NCBI GenBank assembly: GCA_048884965.1
Contig: JBHLQH010000005.1
Location: 110,157 to 174,156, forward strand
Direction: 5' to 3'
Source: Candidatus Thorarchaeota archaeon
GTDB lineage: Archaea; Asgardarchaeota; Thorarchaeia; Thorarchaeales; Thorarchaeaceae
DNA length: 64,000 nt
The translations under genes and the position numbers were made by a program. The notes beneath the pieces are model-generated. The model saw nothing but the letters and a program-made list of their open reading frames with translations. It ran no database searches and was not told the DNA's origin. Shown here one piece after another: positions 286 through 9,400 of this stretch (within the stretch, counting starts at the first letter, position 1; each line of letters starts with the position of its first letter).

Positions 286-1719
286 TCAGGTAATTCCTTT
301 TTGACTCCCCTTTATCCTTCTTCGCAGCCTAAGACGAATCTCATTCATTTTCATTGATGCCTTTGTTTTGGATGGCCAGAATTGTTGGATTTCCTGAAAT
401 CCCATCACGTCGAAGTATAAGGGACACGCACCATTGCAATAATCGAAATGCTGACATTCCCTGCACCCCTCTGAAGCGTATTCTTTCTCTCTCCAGAACA
501 ATGAGGCTCTGTTGTACCATACTTTCTTGAATCCATCAGTCAAGATATTTCCTACTGGCTTGCTAAAACTAGAGCAAGGTAAAACTCCTCCTTCAGGATC
601 AATAGAGATCAACCCGTCGCACGCGGCGCACATCTTAGCTCCTAGCCCATGAGCTATTGGATTGAATAGACATACAGGTGTAGGAGCATACCACACAAAT
701 TGGATTTGTTTCTTCTTTGCTCGCTTCTGAATCCGTTTCACAATTTCCCCAATCTCAGAGAAGGTTATCTGAAGCTCGTTCCTCATCTTAGCAGCGCTGC
801 CAGTGTAAATGACCATATTCATACTAAAATACGACAGGCCCAAGACATCTGCGTGAAAATCAACTAGTTCTTCAAGTCTGTCAACGTTTGGACGACAGAT
901 TGTCGTGTTGCAATGAGTATAGATTTCAGTTTCCCGAAGATTCCTGATTCCCTGCACAGTTCTATCAAATGCTCCGCTAGTTCCAACAATAAAGTCATGA
1001 GTTGCAGCATCAGGTCCCTCGATGGAAACTTGTGCGCTATTGAGGTCTGCAGCAGCTAGATTCTCAACAAATTTCTTGTCACTGCAAAGCACACCATTTG
1101 TGATCAAGTTCATTCGAAGTCCTTTCTCCCTGCCATACTCAATGAGTTCAAAGATGTCCTTTCGTAGAGTAGGTTCCCCTCCTGTGAAGGATAAGCTCGG
1201 GACTTTTGCATCATTGACCAAGATATCGATGACTCTTTTCACCTCATCTGTCGACAGCTCACCTGAGTCACGATATGGAGAGAAGGCATAGCAGAATCTG
1301 CATTTGTTATTACATCGATATGTGAGCGCAATCTCACTAAGGACTGGATATTTGATATCTCCTGTTCCAAACGGTAGTATCTTTGCTGTCTGATATGAAT
1401 AGATGTTTTGATTTCCTGATACAATATTGCGTAAGTCATCGACAAATGCTGCGAGGTCATTCAGAACCTTCTGATTGTCAACCTCAAATTTAGTTGTGAG
1501 TTGCTTCACGACTCCTTCAGGAGTTTCTTCTGCCAATAGCAATTGCAACATGGTTCTTGCAGTTGCATTGAGATGCATTACTTTGTTGGGACGGAGTATG
1601 AGAAGGTTGTCCTCAGGTCGAACAAAGAAATAATCCCTTATCTCTCTCATGAACTTAGGTACCCATTTTAGATCATCAAAGGTATAATCGTAGTTCTTAG
1701 GATAATTTAAGGAGGACAT
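286..1719 (-). CDS. PqqD/RRE-domain radical SAM/SPASM peptide or protein maturase
   Basis: N-terminal RRE-like segment (LLILRPNKVMHLNATA...VLNDLAAFVDDL), CNNKCRFC (CxxxCxxC), FTGGEP, SPASM cysteines CAAC...GGVLPC...CRECQHFDYCNGAC. Start taken at ATG 1719; the ORF is open to 1770. Confidence 0.92.
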   Translation of the reverse strand: MSSLNYPKNYDYTFDDLKWVPKFMREIRDYFFVRPEDNLLILRPNKVMHLNATARTMLQLLLAEETPEGVVKQLTTKFEVDNQKVLNDLAAFVDDLRNIVSGNQNIYSYQTAKILPFGTGDIKYPVLSEIALTYRCNNKCRFCYAFSPYRDSGELSTDEVKRVIDILVNDAKVPSLSFTGGEPTLRKDIFELIEYGREKGLRMNLITNGVLCSDKKFVENLAAADLNSAQVSIEGPDAATHDFIVGTSGAFDRTVQGIRNLRETEIYTHCNTTICRPNVDRLEELVDFHADVLGLSYFSMNMVIYTGSAAKMRNELQITFSEIGEIVKRIQKRAKKKQIQFVWYAPTPVCLFNPIAHGLGAKMCAACDGLISIDPEGGVLPCSSFSKPVGNILTDGFKKVWYNRASLFWREKEYASEGCRECQHFDYCNGACPLYFDVMGFQEIQQFWPSKTKASMKMNEIRLRLRRRIKGSQKGIT

Positions 1720-1829
1720 TAAGCCACATCTAGAATACATAGTAATTAAGGCTTGGTTCGATTTCAGCATCTGAAAGGCTTATCAAGCTAGATTGATGAC
1801 TATTGATAACGCTTGGTGGAGAATTTAGT

Positions 1830-2228
1830 ATGAGCGCGAAGGAAACCAAACTACCTTACGGAATCATCAAGGATAAGAAACTGATAATGCACTTTAGCGC
1901 ATACGACATGGATCTTCCTGTCATTGCGGCTGGAATTCGAGAGCGTTTCGATGTTCTAAAAGAACTAGATGTTGCATTCTCAGGATTTGGAACAGAAGTC
2001 CCAGAAAAGATGACTGATCAGACCCCCGCGGTTGTAAAAGCCTTCTTTGAATATGTTGGGAAGGAGTCAGAGGCTGATGTTATCCTGAAGCGTGTCTATC
2101 ATCTCATCTGGGGTGGTATGATTCAAGAATTCCCAGACCTACTTGATTGGGCGACTGCAAAGGGTGATCTATCAAGTCTAACTCATGCGCAAGCTGATAT
2201 CATCAGGGCACGAAAAGGTGAGGAGTAG
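1830..2228 (+). CDS. Small soluble hypothetical protein, first gene of the unit divergent from the rSAM
   Basis: 132-aa ORF from ATG 1830 with GGTGGAG upstream; 29 bp gap to the next gene. Confidence 0.75.
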   Translation: MSAKETKLPYGIIKDKKLIMHFSAYDMDLPVIAAGIRERFDVLKELDVAFSGFGTEVPEKMTDQTPAVVKAFFEYVGKESEADVILKRVYHLIWGGMIQEFPDLLDWATAKGDLSSLTHAQADIIRARKGEE

Positions 2229-2257
2229 ATAGCTCCTATCATATCATTGGACGAACA

Positions 2258-4435
2258 TTGGAGATGGGTCCCAATTTGAAGAGAACTCACCGAAGCATTG
2301 TCTGTCTTTTCATTGTTGCACTAACAATGATGCCAAGCATTACATTTGCGACCGTACTAGCTCAGGCTGCTGAAGTGAACATTGATAGCGTTCGTGTTGA
2401 GGTGATTGTCCTACCGAATGGGAGGATCAATGTCACCTACTGGATGGAATTCACTGTAAAGAGTGGGTCTCTAGGTGGATTCGACCTATCAGGTATCCAA
2501 GAGAGTTCAATCTATGATCCTGCCCGTGCCTATGCAGATTATGATGGCACTCACTATCCTTTGGTTATTACACCTTTGGCAAATGGATATGGGCTTGACT
2601 GGACTCCTCGAACCCAAGAGGATGAATCCGTCCTCATTGTTTTTGGATACTTCAGTACTAACAGAATCATCGAAAAAACGACCGCAACTGTCACTCTTGA
2701 GGGATCAGGATCTACTGTCACTGGGGATTTTGGCGTTTTTAATTGGGCTCCTGTGCAATGGGAACAAGAGATAGGATATGAGAGTATCCGCGTTGTCTAT
2801 CCTATTATAATGGACCCCTCATGGATTACAGGAGAGGGTGGTATTACACCAGATGGAGCCGATTATGCAGGTTATGTTGTTGATTCTAGACAAGCTATTG
2901 AGGATTCTAACGGGAACTCTTGGGAGTATGATGAAGAGAACCTTTTGGCTTATCCTTCCTCCGCCAGTGCTTCACCTCGCAACTTTAGTCTAAGTCTTAG
3001 ATCCAACATCGTTCTCGCATATGACCACTTGCGGGTATTCCACTATACTAATTGGAGTTTCTATGAGCCCTTTCTTCAACCTGGCGCATTGTGGTACAGT
3101 ACTGAAGGATACATGAATGTGGATGCTGAAATCGAATTCGATGCTAGTATAGCTGTAATAAACATCGGTGATGGCGAACTCGAAGATGTTACTGTTACAA
3201 TGTCAGTTCCAGAGAATCTTACTTTGACTTCCGGGTCGACATCATACTATATTGGACTGCTGGATGGAGGAGAATATGTAACAGTAGAGTATTCTTTCAT
3301 TCCAGCAAATACTCCTCAAGTACTGACACTATCCTTCTTAGTATCCTCATCCGATTTGAATCAATCCCAATGGGTGACATTTACTTTAAGCATCTACGTA
3401 AGGGAATTCATCCCTCCCTTGATTCCACCTTCTTACCTCATATTTGGATTCGTAGGACTATGCGTGTTAGGAGTAGTCTATATCACTTATCGGAGGGTGA
3501 CCCGACGATATGGAGCAACATGGGAGATAGATGAAACAACGAGTGTCTATGAGAGTCCTGAGATAGGTATACAGACATTTGGCGAGCCTGGGACGGTCGC
3601 AGAACTGGATCCTATCGAGTCTGCTTTCTTTGTCAGTGCAAGTCGACAAAAGGTAGTATCTATGATTCTAATGTCGTGTGTCCGAAAGGGAGCTGTTCGA
3701 ATAATCTCAAGCGATCCATTGAAGCTGGTTGATACAGGAATCGAATTCGAAGATTTAACCTACTATGAACGGAAGTTCGTCGACGCAATAAGGGATAACC
3801 AACTGGACCCTGACAAGTTGGATGACATGCTTGAGGAATTAGCAGAGAAGGTCCAAGAGAAATCATGGAATGCCGATTTCGATGCTACTCGCGCACACCA
3901 TGATGAGATGGTCGACGGTGCTTGGAACGAGTTGGAATCCCAGCCAACCTTGGACGGTCGGACTGATTATTACTTCAATCAGCAATATCACGGAGGATGG
4001 GCTTGGTACTGGCTCTATATGCATCCCCATCATGACCGTGATCTTCCACGTACATTCACCCCTCCTGGTGGAACTATAGCAGCACCTCGTATCCCAGACT
4101 GGTTCAGTCAGATGGCGGAAGCTACGGGCAACGTTGTCACAGAAACTGGGCGCGTTATCGGAGATATTGGGGCAACAACTGCAAAAATAATGGGGAATGT
4201 AGCGAATACAATTGGTACCGTCTTCACTAATGTCGGTGAAATCGTACGAGCTCCTTTGAAGCCAATTCTTGAAGGCACAAGTCGCTGTGTATCACATGAT
4301 GCGTGTCACTCAGCATGTGTTTCGCATGATGCATGTCACTCCGCATGTCATAGCGCATGTCATAGTGCGTGTGTATGCCACAGTGCATGTCACTCCGCAT
4401 GTCATAGCGCGTGTGTTTCCGGAGGATTCAGATAG
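2258..4435 (+). CDS. Single-pass membrane protein (DUF2207-like N-terminus, Ig-like domain, TM, cytoplasmic domain) with Cys/His-repeat tail; candidate rSAM substrate
   Basis: Signal-like N-terminus, VEVIVLPNGRINVTY, Ig-like VINIGDGELEDVTVT, TM YLIFGFVGLCVLGVVYITYRR, tail (CHSA)n...CVSGGFR. Confidence 0.85.
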   Translation: MEMGPNLKRTHRSIVCLFIVALTMMPSITFATVLAQAAEVNIDSVRVEVIVLPNGRINVTYWMEFTVKSGSLGGFDLSGIQESSIYDPARAYADYDGTHYPLVITPLANGYGLDWTPRTQEDESVLIVFGYFSTNRIIEKTTATVTLEGSGSTVTGDFGVFNWAPVQWEQEIGYESIRVVYPIIMDPSWITGEGGITPDGADYAGYVVDSRQAIEDSNGNSWEYDEENLLAYPSSASASPRNFSLSLRSNIVLAYDHLRVFHYTNWSFYEPFLQPGALWYSTEGYMNVDAEIEFDASIAVINIGDGELEDVTVTMSVPENLTLTSGSTSYYIGLLDGGEYVTVEYSFIPANTPQVLTLSFLVSSSDLNQSQWVTFTLSIYVREFIPPLIPPSYLIFGFVGLCVLGVVYITYRRVTRRYGATWEIDETTSVYESPEIGIQTFGEPGTVAELDPIESAFFVSASRQKVVSMILMSCVRKGAVRIISSDPLKLVDTGIEFEDLTYYERKFVDAIRDNQLDPDKLDDMLEELAEKVQEKSWNADFDATRAHHDEMVDGAWNELESQPTLDGRTDYYFNQQYHGGWAWYWLYMHPHHDRDLPRTFTPPGGTIAAPRIPDWFSQMAEATGNVVTETGRVIGDIGATTAKIMGNVANTIGTVFTNVGEIVRAPLKPILEGTSRCVSHDACHSACVSHDACHSACHSACHSACVCHSACHSACHSACVSGGFR
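4286..4432 (+). repeat. Coding tandem repeat: CVSHDA x2, CHSA x7 (49 aa, 11 Cys, 9 His)
   Basis: 12-nt units TGY CAY (TCA/TCC/AGC/AGT) GCR read directly from the sequence. Confidence 0.95.
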
Positions 4436-4490
4436 AAGTACCGGAGCCGACACCTTCTTAGCCCCCTTTTTTTCCAGTTTCATGATTACG

Positions 4491-5711
4491 ATGGACCCCA
4501 TCGAAAGCTTCGTACAAATCTGCGGTGAGGTTGGCCACTTCACAGAACGCATTACAGGCGTCAATCTTGTTGATGCCTACATGGGACCTGAGGAGCTCGC
4601 TCCTCACAAACAGAGGACAGATTCAAACGCTCAGACTCTCTTTTCGAAGCTCGATTATCTCATCGACAATATTGAGGATAATATAGAGGAGGATCTGAGA
4701 AGAAGGTACTTGCTTGGGGAAGTAGATTCCCTAATTGCTGCAGTTAGAGTCTTCTCAGGTGAGCCAATGAGCTACGCTGATGCAGTCGAAAGCATGTTTC
4801 ATATTCCAATGCGAGGTTTTCCTGAAAGGGAAATACAACACTGGATTGACATTGTTGAGGACTTACTCTCAAATGCTCCTGGTGGTACTCTTCTTGAAAA
4901 GGTGGATTTGTTCTCAAAGGAAGGAGAAGTGACCGGGGATCAACTTCGTAATCTAATCATGAACGACCTCCAAAAGAAGTCACAAGAAGTAGGATTGCTA
5001 TTTCGGGATCGCATCTATTCTATCATGGGACAAAGTGTCAAAGATAACGGTGTAGAGTACAAATGCGTATTGGATAAACCGTGGAGTGGATACAACTGGT
5101 ATCAGGGTGGATTCAAATCTCTCAATGAATTCAACATTGAGCGACCTTTCAATCGTGATTCCTTGAAGGCTGTCATTTATCACGAGTATGAGCACCATGT
5201 ATCCAATCTATGGCGCGAACAGGTCTATCTCGAAACAGGTAATTTGGAACTATCCATCGTCCCACTACATACTGGTAGGTGTGTGATTTCTGAAGGGACT
5301 GCAGATACAGCAAAGGAATTCTTGGATATAGGACTAGACGATGATCGTACTAGTGTAATTGATGCTCTCTATATACTTCGCAGAATGACAAGTATCAATG
5401 CGGCAATCATGCTTAACAGCGAAAACAAGAGCATTGACAAGGCAGTAGAATATCTCATGGAATATGGTCTAAGAGATGAGGTTTCTGCACGAGGCTCAAT
5501 TGGATTCATTCAACCCAGACAATCTGATGGACGACCGAACTTCTTTGCACCATATGTCTTTACATACTACTTTGGTAGGACTGACTTTGTACGTCCAACA
5601 TTCCTGAAGGCGAAGAAAGAGAACCAGCTTGTGGAGTTCTATCGCACAGTGTATCTCAATCAATACTCAGGTTCAAGTCTTACTTGGAAGGAAGCTTTTG
5701 AGTGGTTGTGA
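4491..5711 (+). CDS. Putative zinc metallopeptidase (HExxH, DUF885-like)
   Basis: YHEYEHH plus downstream SEGTAD Glu and C-terminal YVFTYYFG. True start is probably ATG 4482 or 4491, not 4269. Confidence 0.7.
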   Translation: MDPIESFVQICGEVGHFTERITGVNLVDAYMGPEELAPHKQRTDSNAQTLFSKLDYLIDNIEDNIEEDLRRRYLLGEVDSLIAAVRVFSGEPMSYADAVESMFHIPMRGFPEREIQHWIDIVEDLLSNAPGGTLLEKVDLFSKEGEVTGDQLRNLIMNDLQKKSQEVGLLFRDRIYSIMGQSVKDNGVEYKCVLDKPWSGYNWYQGGFKSLNEFNIERPFNRDSLKAVIYHEYEHHVSNLWREQVYLETGNLELSIVPLHTGRCVISEGTADTAKEFLDIGLDDDRTSVIDALYILRRMTSINAAIMLNSENKSIDKAVEYLMEYGLRDEVSARGSIGFIQPRQSDGRPNFFAPYVFTYYFGRTDFVRPTFLKAKKENQLVEFYRTVYLNQYSGSSLTWKEAFEWL

Positions 5712-5718
5712 TATATTC

Positions 5719-6741
5719 TCAGAGAGAAATCTTTCCATCCTTCATGACTACGCGTTTACGACCATCTGCATAAGATATTGTAACTGTTGGCTTGCCTACG
5801 AGGAAATCTTGATGGTTCGCTGAGTTGTTTGCTACGATGCCAGGATAGTCCATATTGTTACCAAAGGCAACATGGATCGCATTGCCCACCTTCTCACTCT
5901 CCAAGAATTCTTCCACGATTCTAGCCTTTGGATTCAAACCAAACGCGAATTCACCTATGTGTTTCGCCATCTCATCAGTTGCTTGAGTATCGATTATAAT
6001 CTTCAATGCATCCTTGTCTTCACATTCAACAGATATTACCTTGCCATTCTCCGTCTTGATCGTAACAGGTTTCTTCAAAGGTCCTACTCCACCAACTGCT
6101 AGGTCACATACAAGAGTTCCATTCATCGATGTTTCAACAGGCCCCACCAATACTTCTCCTGTAGGGAGGTTCATCCATTTCATATCCTTCCAGTTCAAGA
6201 AGGTGTCAGAGAACCATGTTCTTCCTTTGACGCTAAATGTGAAATCGGAGCCCGAGGGCGAGGTCACATGTACTGATTCCACGTCTTGAAGACTTGCGAG
6301 TAGGTTTCTAGCATATTGCTGCATAGTAGCATTTTCTTCTCTGGACAATGAGAGTGCTCCTTCAGTTAGCATCTCCATATTGATACCTGGACAGTGACCC
6401 AATCTTGATCGTCCTTTTCGTGTTTCAAGTTTGATGATGCTTATTCTAAATGGTGTTTCTTGAGCATTTCCTCTAAGAATGTTGATGAAAATATCAGGTT
6501 GTCTGGGAGAATTAATCATCTCAATAAGCTCTGGGGGAGGTACCTTTCTGAATTCACGCTCGCTCGTTTCAAGAACTAGCATTCTGGTCCAAAGACCTAG
6601 TCTGAGCGCTCCCTCCGCAAAAACAGTACCAACATCCTTTCTGACATCGTCAGTGATTATTAAGATAGATTCACCCGGTCGTGCCTCTAGAACAGATTCC
6701 AATGCATTTGCAGCTGCTTCTCGTGGGTCCATCAATAACAC
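5719..6741 (-). CDS. Aminopeptidase, thermophilic metalloprotease (M29-like) family
   Basis: NLPTGEV, IGEFAFGLNP, ESEKV, HVAFG and HQD motifs. Confidence 0.85.
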   Translation of the reverse strand: MLLMDPREAAANALESVLEARPGESILIITDDVRKDVGTVFAEGALRLGLWTRMLVLETSEREFRKVPPPELIEMINSPRQPDIFINILRGNAQETPFRISIIKLETRKGRSRLGHCPGINMEMLTEGALSLSREENATMQQYARNLLASLQDVESVHVTSPSGSDFTFSVKGRTWFSDTFLNWKDMKWMNLPTGEVLVGPVETSMNGTLVCDLAVGGVGPLKKPVTIKTENGKVISVECEDKDALKIIIDTQATDEMAKHIGEFAFGLNPKARIVEEFLESEKVGNAIHVAFGNNMDYPGIVANNSANHQDFLVGKPTVTISYADGRKRVVMKDGKISL

Positions 6742-6844: not shown

Positions 6845-8230
6845 CTATTGATTCTTTGCGCTTGTGTATGCTCGGTCAAGCTCCTTGTTCATATCAGCAG
6901 GAATTCGTGTCTTTCCTGAGATATCACCTTCCTTCTTACGAATAAAGATGTACAGGAGTGTGACATACACAATATCGAAGGTTCTTAGAATCAAGGTGCT
7001 CGGAATCGCTGCGAAGATCAAGAAGAGTATCGCAAGCAGTATAGTTGTCAAGATGTCTCCAGCTGAGAGGAACCAGCCAATTACCGCTCCTCCCACAGTA
7101 AAGGAGAAGAACACAAAGAACGCCAGGACACCGAAACCCCAGCGCACTGCTGTTTCCTTGATGATGACATCAACGAAGTTGTTCTTCACAAGACTTGCAC
7201 TTGTCTTGATTCCATCCTTTGCTCCCTTTTCTTCTGCGACCATCACAGGGATGGTGAAATAATTGATGAGCGCCCATACCCAATTTATGATTCCTGCCGC
7301 GATGCCTCCAACAGCTCGTCCTGCAACGCCTTGATTCCTAGTAAGTGCTCGAATAGCCATTACGATCAGCCGCACAATGACTCCTGCAATGCTAAGTACG
7401 ATAATACCTCCGATCACATTCAAGGCTCCCTTGATGCCATCTCCCAGACCCGGATCTTGACCTCTCATGTAGATGTAAACCATTCCTGATGAAGTTGCAT
7501 AGGCAAAGTTGTAGAAGAATATTGTAACAAAGAGATACAGGACTAAACCAACGATCAATGGCCAACCATTCTCTACTGTAATAGTGGCAGTCCCAGCTAC
7601 GAATTCATCTAGTGGAATGCCCATGAAGTCTGCTAATGTAAATGTAATAGCTGCGAAGAGAATTGCTGAAACCAATGTGAAAATCATCGTTAGCAGTGGA
7701 GGAACGAACACTCCTTTCTCATCAAGACAAACTCTCCCTGTAAGTTTGATTATCTCTCCAGCTCTCTTTACACGATCCTTGAACACTGTGAATAGAAGAA
7801 CCGTTATGAGAAGAGTGAATAGCCCAGGGATCATAATTGGCCAAGCAGCAATAAGGGCTGCAAAGTTGAAACCTGTGGCTACCCAGAGTAGAATTACTCC
7901 AAGCCAAGTCATGACGTTCATGAAGATTGCCCCAATGTAAATCAGCGTTCCACCAAGCCTATTGGCAAGTGCTGAGGCCCCGATTCCCACTAAAATGGTG
8001 AATAAGATGATTGCACCAAAGAATCCTGCAATGTATATCATATTATCCAAAAAGAAGGTATCAATTCCCAGTGAAGCTATGATGGCAGAAATGTCAAATT
8101 TCTCCCACAGATACATTAGAGAATATACACCTGCTGCAATGAACGCTCCAAACACAACAAGGAGTCCAGCTATCGCTCCTTTATGGGAAGGATAGTTCTC
8201 CTTCGTATGATAGGTTAACAAATCCGTCAT
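6845..8230 (-). CDS. Polytopic membrane protein, choline-transporter-like (CTL/SLC44) or DUF6159-like
   Basis: About 10 hydrophobic segments; DRVKRAGEIIKLTGRV..P and WALINYFTIPVMVAEEKGAKDGIKTSASLV motifs. Confidence 0.6.
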   Translation of the reverse strand: MTDLLTYHTKENYPSHKGAIAGLLVVFGAFIAAGVYSLMYLWEKFDISAIIASLGIDTFFLDNMIYIAGFFGAIILFTILVGIGASALANRLGGTLIYIGAIFMNVMTWLGVILLWVATGFNFAALIAAWPIMIPGLFTLLITVLLFTVFKDRVKRAGEIIKLTGRVCLDEKGVFVPPLLTMIFTLVSAILFAAITFTLADFMGIPLDEFVAGTATITVENGWPLIVGLVLYLFVTIFFYNFAYATSSGMVYIYMRGQDPGLGDGIKGALNVIGGIIVLSIAGVIVRLIVMAIRALTRNQGVAGRAVGGIAAGIINWVWALINYFTIPVMVAEEKGAKDGIKTSASLVKNNFVDVIIKETAVRWGFGVLAFFVFFSFTVGGAVIGWFLSAGDILTTILLAILFLIFAAIPSTLILRTFDIVYVTLLYIFIRKKEGDISGKTRIPADMNKELDRAYTSAKNQ

Positions 8231-8370
8231 TTATCGATCTACTCCTCCAACGAGCAAATATATTCCCCTCTCTAACGACACAGCTTGTTAAATATTCCCA
8301 CTGACCTTGCTTTCATCCAATAAGCTCGCATATCGCAAGTCCTTTTAATTGAAATCTGCCAATGTCTTCC

Positions 8371-8841
8371 ATGCAAAATATTCTCTATTGTGAACCAGGA
8401 CGAATCTTTTGTAGGTCGAAACGTGTTCTTCTTGCTGTTGATGGAAGTGATAGGGCTGCAAGAGCTGCTTCCGTGGCATTTGAGATAGCTGAAATGACAG
8501 GGTCAAAGATACACATCATTCATGTGATACCTACCGCTTCCGTTCAACAAATAGCACTCATGACGGACGGAGATATTGAGGAAATCAAGCGGAAATACTC
8601 AGAAAATGGAAGACGCCTTCTGGAGGGCTACAAGAAAGCTGCAGAGGATTATCATCTTGAAGTTGAGCTCATCCTTGAAGAGGGACGACCTGCTAATCGC
8701 ATTGTACTCTATGCAAATGAAAATGAGATAGACTTGGTCGTCATGGGTTCTAGAGGTCCTAGAACTGGAAAACGAGTTGATATGGGAAGCGAAACCGAGC
8801 GCGTTGTCGAAGGAACAGAATGTCCTGTGATTATAGTATGA
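8371..8841 (+). CDS. Universal stress protein (UspA family)
   Basis: LLAVDGS, G.P...I, DLVVMGSRG, GSETERVV, CPVIIV; start may be 8362. Confidence 0.92.
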   Translation: MQNILYCEPGRIFCRSKRVLLAVDGSDRAARAASVAFEIAEMTGSKIHIIHVIPTASVQQIALMTDGDIEEIKRKYSENGRRLLEGYKKAAEDYHLEVELILEEGRPANRIVLYANENEIDLVVMGSRGPRTGKRVDMGSETERVVEGTECPVIIV

Positions 8842-8932
8842 TTCGATATATTTGAATAATGATCTTTTCTAGAGCTTGGTTCTAGACAAATGCATATTAC
8901 CAAAGTCATAGCCAATACTACTGGGATATCGA

Positions 8933-9400
8933 ATGACGAATAGCAAGAATTCCTTTCTGAGCCGAATACAAGTAATCTTGCTACCTGTTGATGGAAGTGA
9001 GAATTCGGATCGTGCCGCTCAAGTGGCAATTGATTTTGCAAAGATGACAAGTGCCAGACTTGTCATAATGCATGTCGTCAATATTGGTATAATTGAGCAG
9101 GTCTCACGTAACTTAGGAAAGACCACCGATGAAGTGAAGCAGAAATATAGGAAGGAAGCCCAGAGTCTACTGGAGAAACATTCGTTGATGTCTAAAAACG
9201 CTGGCGTCAATGCATCTACATCCTTGGAATTTGGATTGCCTTCAGAGAAAATCCTTCAACTTGCATCAACCAGCAAAGCAGACATTATCGTCATGGGCGC
9301 GATTGGTGCTTCCCAACAAACTCGAATAGAAGTCAACATTGGTAGCTCCACAGAGCGTGTAATTCGAAGAGCTCCCTGTAGTGTGTTTGTTGTGAGATAA
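8933..9400 (+). CDS. Universal stress protein (UspA family), tandem paralog
   Basis: LLPVDGSENS, DIIVMGA, IGSSTERVIRRAPCSVFVV. Confidence 0.92.
   Translation: MTNSKNSFLSRIQVILLPVDGSENSDRAAQVAIDFAKMTSARLVIMHVVNIGIIEQVSRNLGKTTDEVKQKYRKEAQSLLEKHSLMSKNAGVNASTSLEFGLPSEKILQLASTSKADIIVMGAIGASQQTRIEVNIGSSTERVIRRAPCSVFVVR

Follow-up and report, generated by a model that had tools for sequence, protein, structure and literature searches.

A candidate dedicated pair of a radical SAM enzyme and a membrane protein with a Cys-rich tail in Thorarchaeota and other lineages

In a 64,000-nucleotide stretch of DNA from Candidatus Thorarchaeota archaeon (contig JBHLQH010000005.1; the whole of this stretch is referred to as the window), positions 286 to 5711 encode a radical S-adenosylmethionine (SAM) enzyme and, on the opposite strand, a membrane protein that ends in a dense Cys/His repeat. 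Our analysis indicates that the two are in all probability a dedicated physical pair, and we put at roughly 60% the probability that the enzyme docks on an internal leader within the membrane protein and modifies that protein's own tail, a reading that draws on sequence comparison and structure models. A preliminary description of this DNA had placed the system in an apparent Asgard archaeon; it is not peculiar to Asgard archaea, since it occurs also in bacteria and in other archaea. The system is widespread and is undescribed in the literature that we searched, in which coverage of subscription papers was thin and no description of this enzyme/membrane-protein pair was found.

Linkage of the enzyme and the membrane protein

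All four open reading frames (ORFs) of the preliminary description were confirmed in the sequence and the ORF list at their earlier-noted positions. The enzyme is encoded on the minus strand by a longest frame (286-1770) of 494 amino acids; since homologs align from residue 17-27 of that frame, the ATG at 1719 is the likely start, giving a protein of 477 amino acids (286-1719). Its Pfam matches (PqqD at E 1e-9, Radical_SAM and SPASM) agree with the N-terminal PqqD-like domain and the SPASM cysteines first reported. The PqqD-like domain (1426-1599, minus strand; PF05402, E 1.1e-9, 38.9 bits against a cut-off of 23.4) is a RiPP (a peptide made by the ribosome and modified after its translation) recognition element, or RRE. 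The CxxxCxxC motif of the SAM cluster (1291-1314, minus strand; C153, C157 and C160 in the 494-residue frame) is invariant in 54 homologs, and alignment of the SPASM region (424-672, minus strand) identifies seven Cys conserved in the family (367, 381, 399, 436, 439, 445 and 449 in the same frame). An eighth Cys of this region, C384, is present in the window enzyme and is not conserved in the wider homolog set, so one Fe site may be open.

The partner (2258-4435, plus strand) is a single-pass, DUF2207-related membrane protein of 725 amino acids. AlphaFold2 models and hydropathy give the order signal peptide, beta-sandwich ectodomain, transmembrane helix, leader-like segment, folded cytoplasmic domain, linker and Cys/His tail. 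Exactly two segments are hydrophobic, the signal peptide and one transmembrane helix (residues ~391-418; 3428-3511, plus strand), the latter ending in a basic stop-transfer patch, RRVTRR. Because all five N-x-S/T sequons of the protein precede this helix, the last ~307 residues are most likely cytoplasmic, and these topology signals thus support the earlier suggestion that the tail faces the cytoplasm. The tail itself (4286-4435, plus strand), recognized from the outset as a terminal Cys/His repeat, comprises 49 residues with 11 Cys and 9 His in a (Cys-His-Ser/Asp-Ala)n pattern that ends in VSGGFR, and is the presumed core of the modification.

The pairing of these two genes recurs in Thorarchaeota and in distant lineages. 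Close homologs of the membrane protein (53-69% identity) are Thorarchaeota records, and in every Thorarchaeota locus whose upstream flank is available (39/39) the radical SAM gene and the membrane gene are neighbours; five further loci are cut by contig ends or a gap and lie outside this count. Bacteria and other Asgard lineages supply more distant homologs (22-35% identity); those that are not cut short end in (CHxA)n, and all nine that were looked up and had enough flank have a radical SAM-SPASM gene next door or one gene away. Co-occurrence with the enzyme, which the preliminary description had proposed as a check, is therefore seen in both sets. Six CHxA-type enzymes beside distant tail proteins are 38-45% identical to the window enzyme over their full length, and the window enzyme is their best match in this genome. 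In bacteria and other archaea the two genes lie mostly on one strand and are often adjacent, and a search started from the enzyme side returned the same pair in most metagenome loci. No relative was found on plasmids.

Patterns of presence and absence agree with this linkage. Among 86 family genomes, the radical SAM gene is present in 63, the membrane gene in 59 and orf132, the small gene that lies between them, in 56; all three are missing in 19, including genomes that are 97-98% complete, and in three of these (G324, G326 and G327) the flanking genes are joined across a cleanly deleted block. Kin genomes are not independent, and we claim no p-value for the linkage. All six other genomes of the same genus (G325-G330) are without the system. 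Either the genus as a whole lost it and the present genome retained it, or it was reacquired here or mis-binned (contamination of this genome is 7.2%).

Silent and amino-acid differences were compared among 44 Thorarchaeota tails. Of the codon pairs, 57% show a synonymous difference and 0.6% a difference in amino acid; in the 47 codons immediately upstream of the tail, the amino acid differs in 31%. Because silent change is saturated while the amino acids are near-invariant, the repeat is held by selection on the protein; judged from these codons, the tail is under extreme purifying selection, and recent slippage was rejected as the source of the repeat. The same CHxA repeat is found in bacterial homologs, and it is kept even where, in some homologs, a ~90-residue extension follows the tail. 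Two homologs that had seemed to lack the tail (P0163 and P0170) carry the repeat internally, with the radical SAM gene adjacent, and most other apparently tail-less matches look like fragments or frameshifted calls.

A free precursor was also sought. As first noted, there is no free small precursor beside the enzyme gene, for no Cys-rich small ORF flanks it; none was found elsewhere in the genome, and none was seen as a conserved small ORF among the neighbours of homologous loci. A separate precursor elsewhere, which the preliminary description had named as an observation that would speak against the membrane protein as substrate, is not indicated: in this genome the membrane protein is the one place where the multi-unit repeat is found.

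A second, sister clade of the enzyme was recognized in Asgard genomes by its scores against the hidden Markov model (340-380, versus at least 500 for the first clade). The sister-clade enzyme adjoins the same kind of membrane protein, which here ends in a Gly-rich linker and (Cys-Ala)n-GGGR. We refer to the CHxA systems as type A and to the Cys-Ala systems as type B; type B tails alternate Cys and Ala strictly and have no His, type A tails have His at every fourth residue, and the residue classes common to both are Cys, Ala and Gly. Of 400 Asgard genomes, 60 show the (CA)3-GGG pattern, and the radical SAM gene is present in all but one of these (59). That tail-bearing homologs might routinely occur without the enzyme, the other contrary outcome foreseen, was thus not observed, the pattern being present in one of 259 Asgard genomes that are negative for the enzyme. 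In a tree of 61 paired enzymes all those with CACA tails (11/11) group in a single clade with support 1.0, and the CHxA enzymes stand separately with support 0.95; distances between the enzymes track distances between their membrane proteins with the tail removed (Spearman 0.93 over the 61 pairs). Since shared ancestry alone can give both the clade split and the correlation, these results show co-inheritance and not catalysis. Two loci carry both CHxA and CACA repeats in one tail. Three loci hold hybrid or divergent members (L050:5631-8773, L144:9608-12382 and L145); in L050 the ectodomain-plus-transmembrane part and the cytoplasmic tail part are apparently encoded by two different genes, and CHxA and CACACAGGGW repeats are combined in the tail. 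Some type B loci have a second, weaker-scoring radical SAM paralog in tandem (L140:1-1231 and L141:2288-3712).

A leader-like segment behind the membrane helix

Just behind the transmembrane helix, the membrane proteins of both types share a short motif, with Pro present in 167/167 distinct homologs and [YW]xxPx(hydrophobic) in 160/167. YxxP in lasso peptides and WxxP in StsA are reported RRE recognition sequences (PMC12710340). In the window protein the motif lies in residues 429-442 (3542-3583, plus strand; core YESPEI, with the Pro at position 434). When the near-whole enzyme was co-folded with the whole cytoplasmic part of the membrane protein, so that the model was free to choose its site, the pair scored 0.83, with 0.00 for the best of three controls; the mark applied is reached by 58 of 80 solved complexes and by 2 of 110 mismatched pairs. 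At least 35% of contacts are common to the runs, and pLDDT (the per-residue model confidence) of the partner is at least 63. In the contacts predicted with confidence, residues 429-442, with P434 at the centre, meet the strand-3/helix-1 end of the RRE, helix 3 and the linker that follows. The strand-3/helix-1 end, together with helix 3, thus forms the predicted cleft for the YxxP segment, and the RRE is predicted by these models to bind the membrane protein at 429-442. The preliminary description had proposed co-folding the RRE with the last ~120 residues; binding is indeed predicted, but the confident site lies behind the transmembrane helix and not in that terminal part, and a construct of the last 120 residues as first proposed would omit the recognition strand.

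These observations provide the basis for a working model. The membrane protein would be exported via its signal peptide and anchored by its one transmembrane helix, leaving ~307 residues in the cytoplasm. The RRE of the enzyme would then bind the YxxP-type strand behind the helix as an internal leader, tethering the enzyme at the membrane, where it would use SAM-derived radicals on the protein's own Cys repeat ~240 residues downstream, the chemistry being most likely several Cys-to-carbon thioether cross-links. The product would probably remain part of the protein and form a cytoplasmic module, rigid or metal-binding, in a receptor-like complex at the membrane, together with a partner that has two transmembrane helices, a winged helix-turn-helix domain and a Zn ribbon (2TM-wHTH-Zn-ribbon; see below). 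That the tail remains attached is probable because no protease is co-inherited and some homologs run ~90 residues past the repeat. We speculate that the role lies in sensing envelope, metal or redox stress, for which hints come from the receptor-like layout, the Zn-ribbon membrane partners, a PspA-family gene behind the radical SAM gene in two loci, and the stress-sensitive mutant of a DUF2207 protein (PMC10457818). The broader proposition, that widespread receptor-like membrane proteins hold an internal RRE strand and a downstream Cys core on which a tethered radical SAM enzyme makes a poly-thioether (or other new) module for metal sensing or signalling, with the 2TM-wHTH-Zn-ribbon partner and, in some lineages, a PspA-like protein, is tentative and in our estimate falls short of even odds.

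Several points weigh against docking on an internal leader and modification of the tail. The tail is not confidently placed in the active site by the co-fold, and the co-fold pass may come from likeness to solved RRE-leader complexes. A monomer model from a deep alignment shows the YxxP segment lying ordered against its own domain (pLDDT 78-89), and its role may thus be structural; the aromatic residue of the motif is missing from seven homologs (of the Promethearchaeota and L144 types), and two radical SAM loci with 6 kb on both sides (L093 and L098) have no membrane gene nearby. Many DUF2207_C domains, moreover, presumably begin with a similar y-x-p-P motif, although the single control inspected, the plain DUF2207 protein YciQ of E. 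coli, has no such motif after its transmembrane segment, no Cys repeat and no radical SAM neighbour. Unmodified repeats that are dense in Cys and His, or of the Cys-X-Cys kind, are also a classic form of metal ligand. The support as a whole is genomic and predicted. As a separate observation, the aromatic residue of YxxP is missing in L050 as well as in L144.

Enzyme chemistry and known systems

The window enzyme is assigned to no named maturase family. No NCBIfam model reaches its cut-off on it, and the models for PapB (NF047865), StsB (NF045574), SkfB (TIGR04403), MftC (TIGR03962), PqqE (TIGR02109), HxsC (TIGR03977) and ACGX (TIGR04340) all fall far below theirs, as do the top scores, which belong to the heme-pathway SPASM enzymes AhbD and NirJ2. 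The closest solved relatives are SkfB, the best PDB match of the family profile (E 3e-38), and PqqE, which is as close by sequence as SkfB. For a finer comparison we used the six residues near the catalytic site as defined in PMC10288494 (Precord et al. 2023, hairpin sactisynthase group 1). These read YTISSS in type A and YTITQS in type B; StsB (YTISKL, positions mapped by motif only) agrees with the type A residues in 4/6, SkfB (YTFSQL) in 3/6 and CteB (FFTSHQ) in 1/6. The preliminary description had cited PapB and CteB, but the active-site residues lean toward StsB and SkfB. This profile gives a weak lean to S-C-alpha links over the PapB/CteB type, and the S-C-alpha type is on sequence grounds slightly favoured, tempered by the fact that the StsB match is only 4/6 and that Y-T-I-S may be common among SPASM enzymes. 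Overall we consider a covalent change of the tail by the enzyme more likely than not. Thioether links would be the most likely chemistry if the tail is modified, and we consider thioether cross-links specifically to be possible, at a little under an even chance. Seven SPASM Cys, the number conserved in the family, are also present in CrpC, an enzyme that forms thioethers on an archaeal protein rich in Cys (PMC13692751).

The catalytic-site residues bear on a different explanation, in which the membrane protein would act as a tether or regulator via YxxP, while its unmodified tail chelates metal or an Fe-S cluster or feeds clusters or electrons, and the chemistry falls on something else, for example a lipid, a cofactor or another protein that partners it. 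Metal is typically bound by tails of the Cys/His-rich and CxC kinds, Zn-ribbon partners are common in these loci, the highest NCBIfam scores are those of heme-pathway enzymes, and the co-fold does not place the tail confidently in the active site. However, the residues at the catalytic site vary with tail type, the near-invariant Ala/Ser positions would fit enzyme recognition better than a metallothionein-like sponge, and an RRE normally delivers the chain that gets modified. In addition, no conserved small-molecule pathway genes lie near the enzyme, apart from a class I methyltransferase in type B. Taken together, these points make this explanation rather unlikely, if the most serious of the competitors.

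That same methyltransferase, which follows the radical SAM gene in 12 of 19 loci that were assigned to the type B bin, enters a further explanation, in which the tail is the substrate but the product is not a thioether: alternating residues might be epimerized, His-carbon cross-links formed, or methyl groups added with the type B methyltransferase. The Cys-Ala alternation of type B and the His at every fourth residue of type A would suit such chemistry, as would the closeness of PqqE. Against it, Cys is the only residue class common to both tails besides Ala and Gly, type B being without His, and the conservation of seven Cys in the SPASM region suits an enzyme that makes thioethers; tails that lie internally, with an extension C-terminal to them, also speak against a terminal decarboxylation like that of MftC. 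We regard non-thioether chemistry as unlikely. Two specific candidates were set aside: MftC-like C-terminal chemistry is improbable because of those internal tails, and attachment of heme c via CxxxCH is improbable, on reasoning only, since the tail is cytoplasmic and type B has no His.

Among known systems, one of the closest is CrpC/CrpA of Methanococcus voltae (TIGR04463; PMC13692751), in which an archaeal RRE-radical SAM-SPASM enzyme with seven SPASM Cys acts on the Cys-rich C-terminal repeats of a whole protein and binds it through RRE-leader contacts plus domain contacts. CrpA differs, however, in its size of 29 kDa, in having its leader at the N terminus and in its repeat, which is 17 residues long and contains C-X-X-Q/D motifs, whereas the partner here is an integral membrane protein of 60-100 kDa with a mid-protein recognition strand and a 4- or 2-residue repeat, and TIGR04463 is not among the 25 best NCBIfam matches of the window enzyme. 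StsB/StsA and SkfB/SkfA (PMC10288494; PDB 6EFN) resemble the system in WxxP-type RRE recognition (StsA), which for the present pair is predicted, and in a CxCxC core that is like the type B tail, but they use small free precursors and form hairpin Cys-to-Gly links; the StsB model scores 109 on the window enzyme against a cut-off of 625, and catalytic positions 5-6 are SS or QS here versus KL in StsB. The CXXX-repeat targets (TIGR04114/PF27846 and TIGR04117) resemble the tails in having Cys at every fourth residue beside a radical SAM gene, and PF27846 weakly matches several homologs; these targets are nevertheless short (~100 amino acids in the model), and TIGR04117 gives 13-14 bits against a cut-off of 50 on homologs and no match on the window tail. 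TIGR04115, which we take to be the maturase model that goes with the CXXX-repeat targets, is not among the 25 best NCBIfam matches of the window enzyme.

QhpD, PapB and CteB are SPASM enzymes that make Cys thioethers, QhpD doing so within a protein subunit. The window tail has two CX3D spacings, but these are not kept in most bacterial tails (CHD or CVHD) and are absent from type B, the PapB model scores 95 against a cut-off of 340, and the catalytic profile agrees with CteB in one position of six. The closest proposal that involves a membrane substrate concerns TIGR04222 proteins and MNIO enzymes (PMC12452194): these integral membrane proteins, too, have a Cys-rich region at the C terminus that an enzyme has been proposed to modify; there the enzyme class is different, the tails are predicted to be periplasmic, linkage is loose (a third of genomes are without the enzyme), and the modification is a proposal too. 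A classical sactipeptide or ranthipeptide cluster, finally, has a small free precursor with an N-terminal leader and a co-inherited protease or exporter, neither of which is found here. The system would work like CrpC/CrpA, QhpD/QhpC and StsB/StsA and is a member of none, because every named model falls below its cut-off and there is neither a small precursor nor a linked protease.

To our knowledge, the substrates for which cross-linking of a whole protein by a radical SAM enzyme has been shown are few (QhpC and, in 2026, CrpA), and as far as we found no integral membrane protein is among them. If docking on an internal leader and modification of the tail are correct, such cross-linking would extend, in bacteria and in archaea both Asgard and other, to proteins that are integral to the membrane and carry their leader internally. 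Because tools for finding precursors look for short ORFs, they would miss these substrates. The pairing would also explain an otherwise orphan radical SAM clade and give a first biochemical handle on DUF2207-related proteins, and the two enzyme/tail types would constitute a natural swap experiment.

Accessory and neighbouring genes

Upstream of the membrane gene and head-to-head with the enzyme gene lies orf132 (1830-2228, plus strand). Taking ATG 1719 as the enzyme start, the gap to the orf132 ATG is 110 bp (1720-1829), as had been described; it is probably a shared promoter region, and the divergent layout is kept in Thorarchaeota. The 132-residue product, already described as belonging to no recognized family, is a soluble protein with no Pfam, NCBIfam, PHROG or Atlas match and no homolog in loci outside Thorarchaeota. 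The gene is absent from all 19 genomes that lack the enzyme and the membrane protein and thus appears to be a Thorarchaeota-specific accessory part. Of the three-gene unit first proposed, orf132 and the membrane gene are lost together with the enzyme, but the third gene, for an HExxH protein, is not conserved in the unit.

This third gene (4482-5711, plus strand) encodes a probable metallopeptidase of 409 amino acids with an invariant HEYEH motif and a downstream EG; its start is at about 4482, and a longer frame from 4269 overlaps the tail. The protein has no family match, and its PDB match is only to neurolysin (E 0.13). It had been proposed to release or trim the modified tail, and the gene is indeed adjacent here and within ~0.05-2.7 kb of the membrane gene in most Thorarchaeota loci. 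Its presence is, however, uncoupled from the system in both directions. Five genomes without the enzyme, orf132 and the membrane protein keep it (G321, which is 98% complete, G324, G326, G327 and G395), and it was not found in four genomes that keep the block (G385, G386 at 94%, G323 at 95% and G322). It was found only in Thorarchaeota loci, where other genes often intervene, and a T7 tract 3' of the membrane gene (4467-4473, plus strand) may be an archaeal terminator that splits it off; a synteny just as loose is seen for the M29 and DUF6159 genes that flank it. Release of the tail as a free peptide by this protein is therefore very improbable, and we regard the gene as a neighbour outside the system. 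The peptidase next to some bacterial loci is unrelated to it, and among the neighbours of the loci no protease or transporter is common to all types. Beyond the HExxH gene, on the opposite strand, lie an M29 aminopeptidase gene (5719-6741) and a DUF6159 membrane gene (6845-8230), which are loosely syntenic in Thorarchaeota and are kept when the system is lost.

The likely partner is encoded on the other side of the enzyme. A gene for a 241-residue 2TM-wHTH(PCI-like)-Zn-ribbon protein (G000:C5:106620-107345; L054:6464-7189) lies ~3 kb beyond the end of the enzyme gene, 2.8-3.5 kb before base 1 of the window. It is full-length in nearly all carriers of the block and absent, or cut to the transmembrane part and the Zn ribbon, in all 19 block-less genomes, and the gene that sits between it and the block, for a pyridoxal phosphate enzyme, is retained. 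The 2TM-wHTH-Zn-ribbon gene is very likely a fourth part of the system, and a weakly related 2TM-(wHTH)-Zn-ribbon gene (E 1e-4 to 1e-6) is present in many bacterial and other archaeal loci. Directly 3' of the type B enzyme gene, two loci have a PspA/IM30-type gene (L155:9612-10325 and L157:9462-10169), a possible link to envelope stress; many type A bacterial loci have a ~395-residue coiled-coil gene in the same place. A ~325-residue membrane protein of no known family follows the enzyme in one bacterial branch (L045:3330-4301, L048:10029-11057 and L051:10064-11050) and is also present in some Asgard loci such as L142 and L143.

Likeness of the membrane protein to DUF2207 was seen in its N-terminal part. 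PF09972 matches 10 of 27 homologs (best E 9e-8) with no match on the window protein, whose Atlas neighbours lie below 0.9, and hhalign relates the ectodomain to that of YciQ (64%, E 7e-5), which likewise has a Gly-rich end. YciQ differs in its extra transmembrane segments, its Gly-only tail and its neighbourhood, in which there is no radical SAM gene; hhalign to its C-terminal part gives 0.7%, and PF20990 has no match in this genome at E 0.001. A mutant of the S. mutans DUF2207 protein SMU.243 is stress-sensitive (PMC10457818). The best Foldseek matches of the ectodomain (2372-3394) are oligosaccharyltransferase chains, apparently ribophorin I/Ost1 (E 3e-9, with a low whole-chain TM-score); it also matches Ig-like domains of the TRAP complex, presumably via a Thorarchaeota-specific CARDB-like insert. 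Both are likenesses at the level of fold only, and bacterial homologs share the first ectodomain domain. GOLPH3/Vps74 is the best VIA match for the cytoplasmic domain (~3600-4230), at Z 6.2 and rmsd 4.5 with 160 aligned, as against 3.4 for the next row that is unrelated; this is below the level to trust. Further along the window, positions 8362-9400 hold two tandem ORFs of 159 and 155 amino acids that, judged by eye, resemble universal stress proteins.

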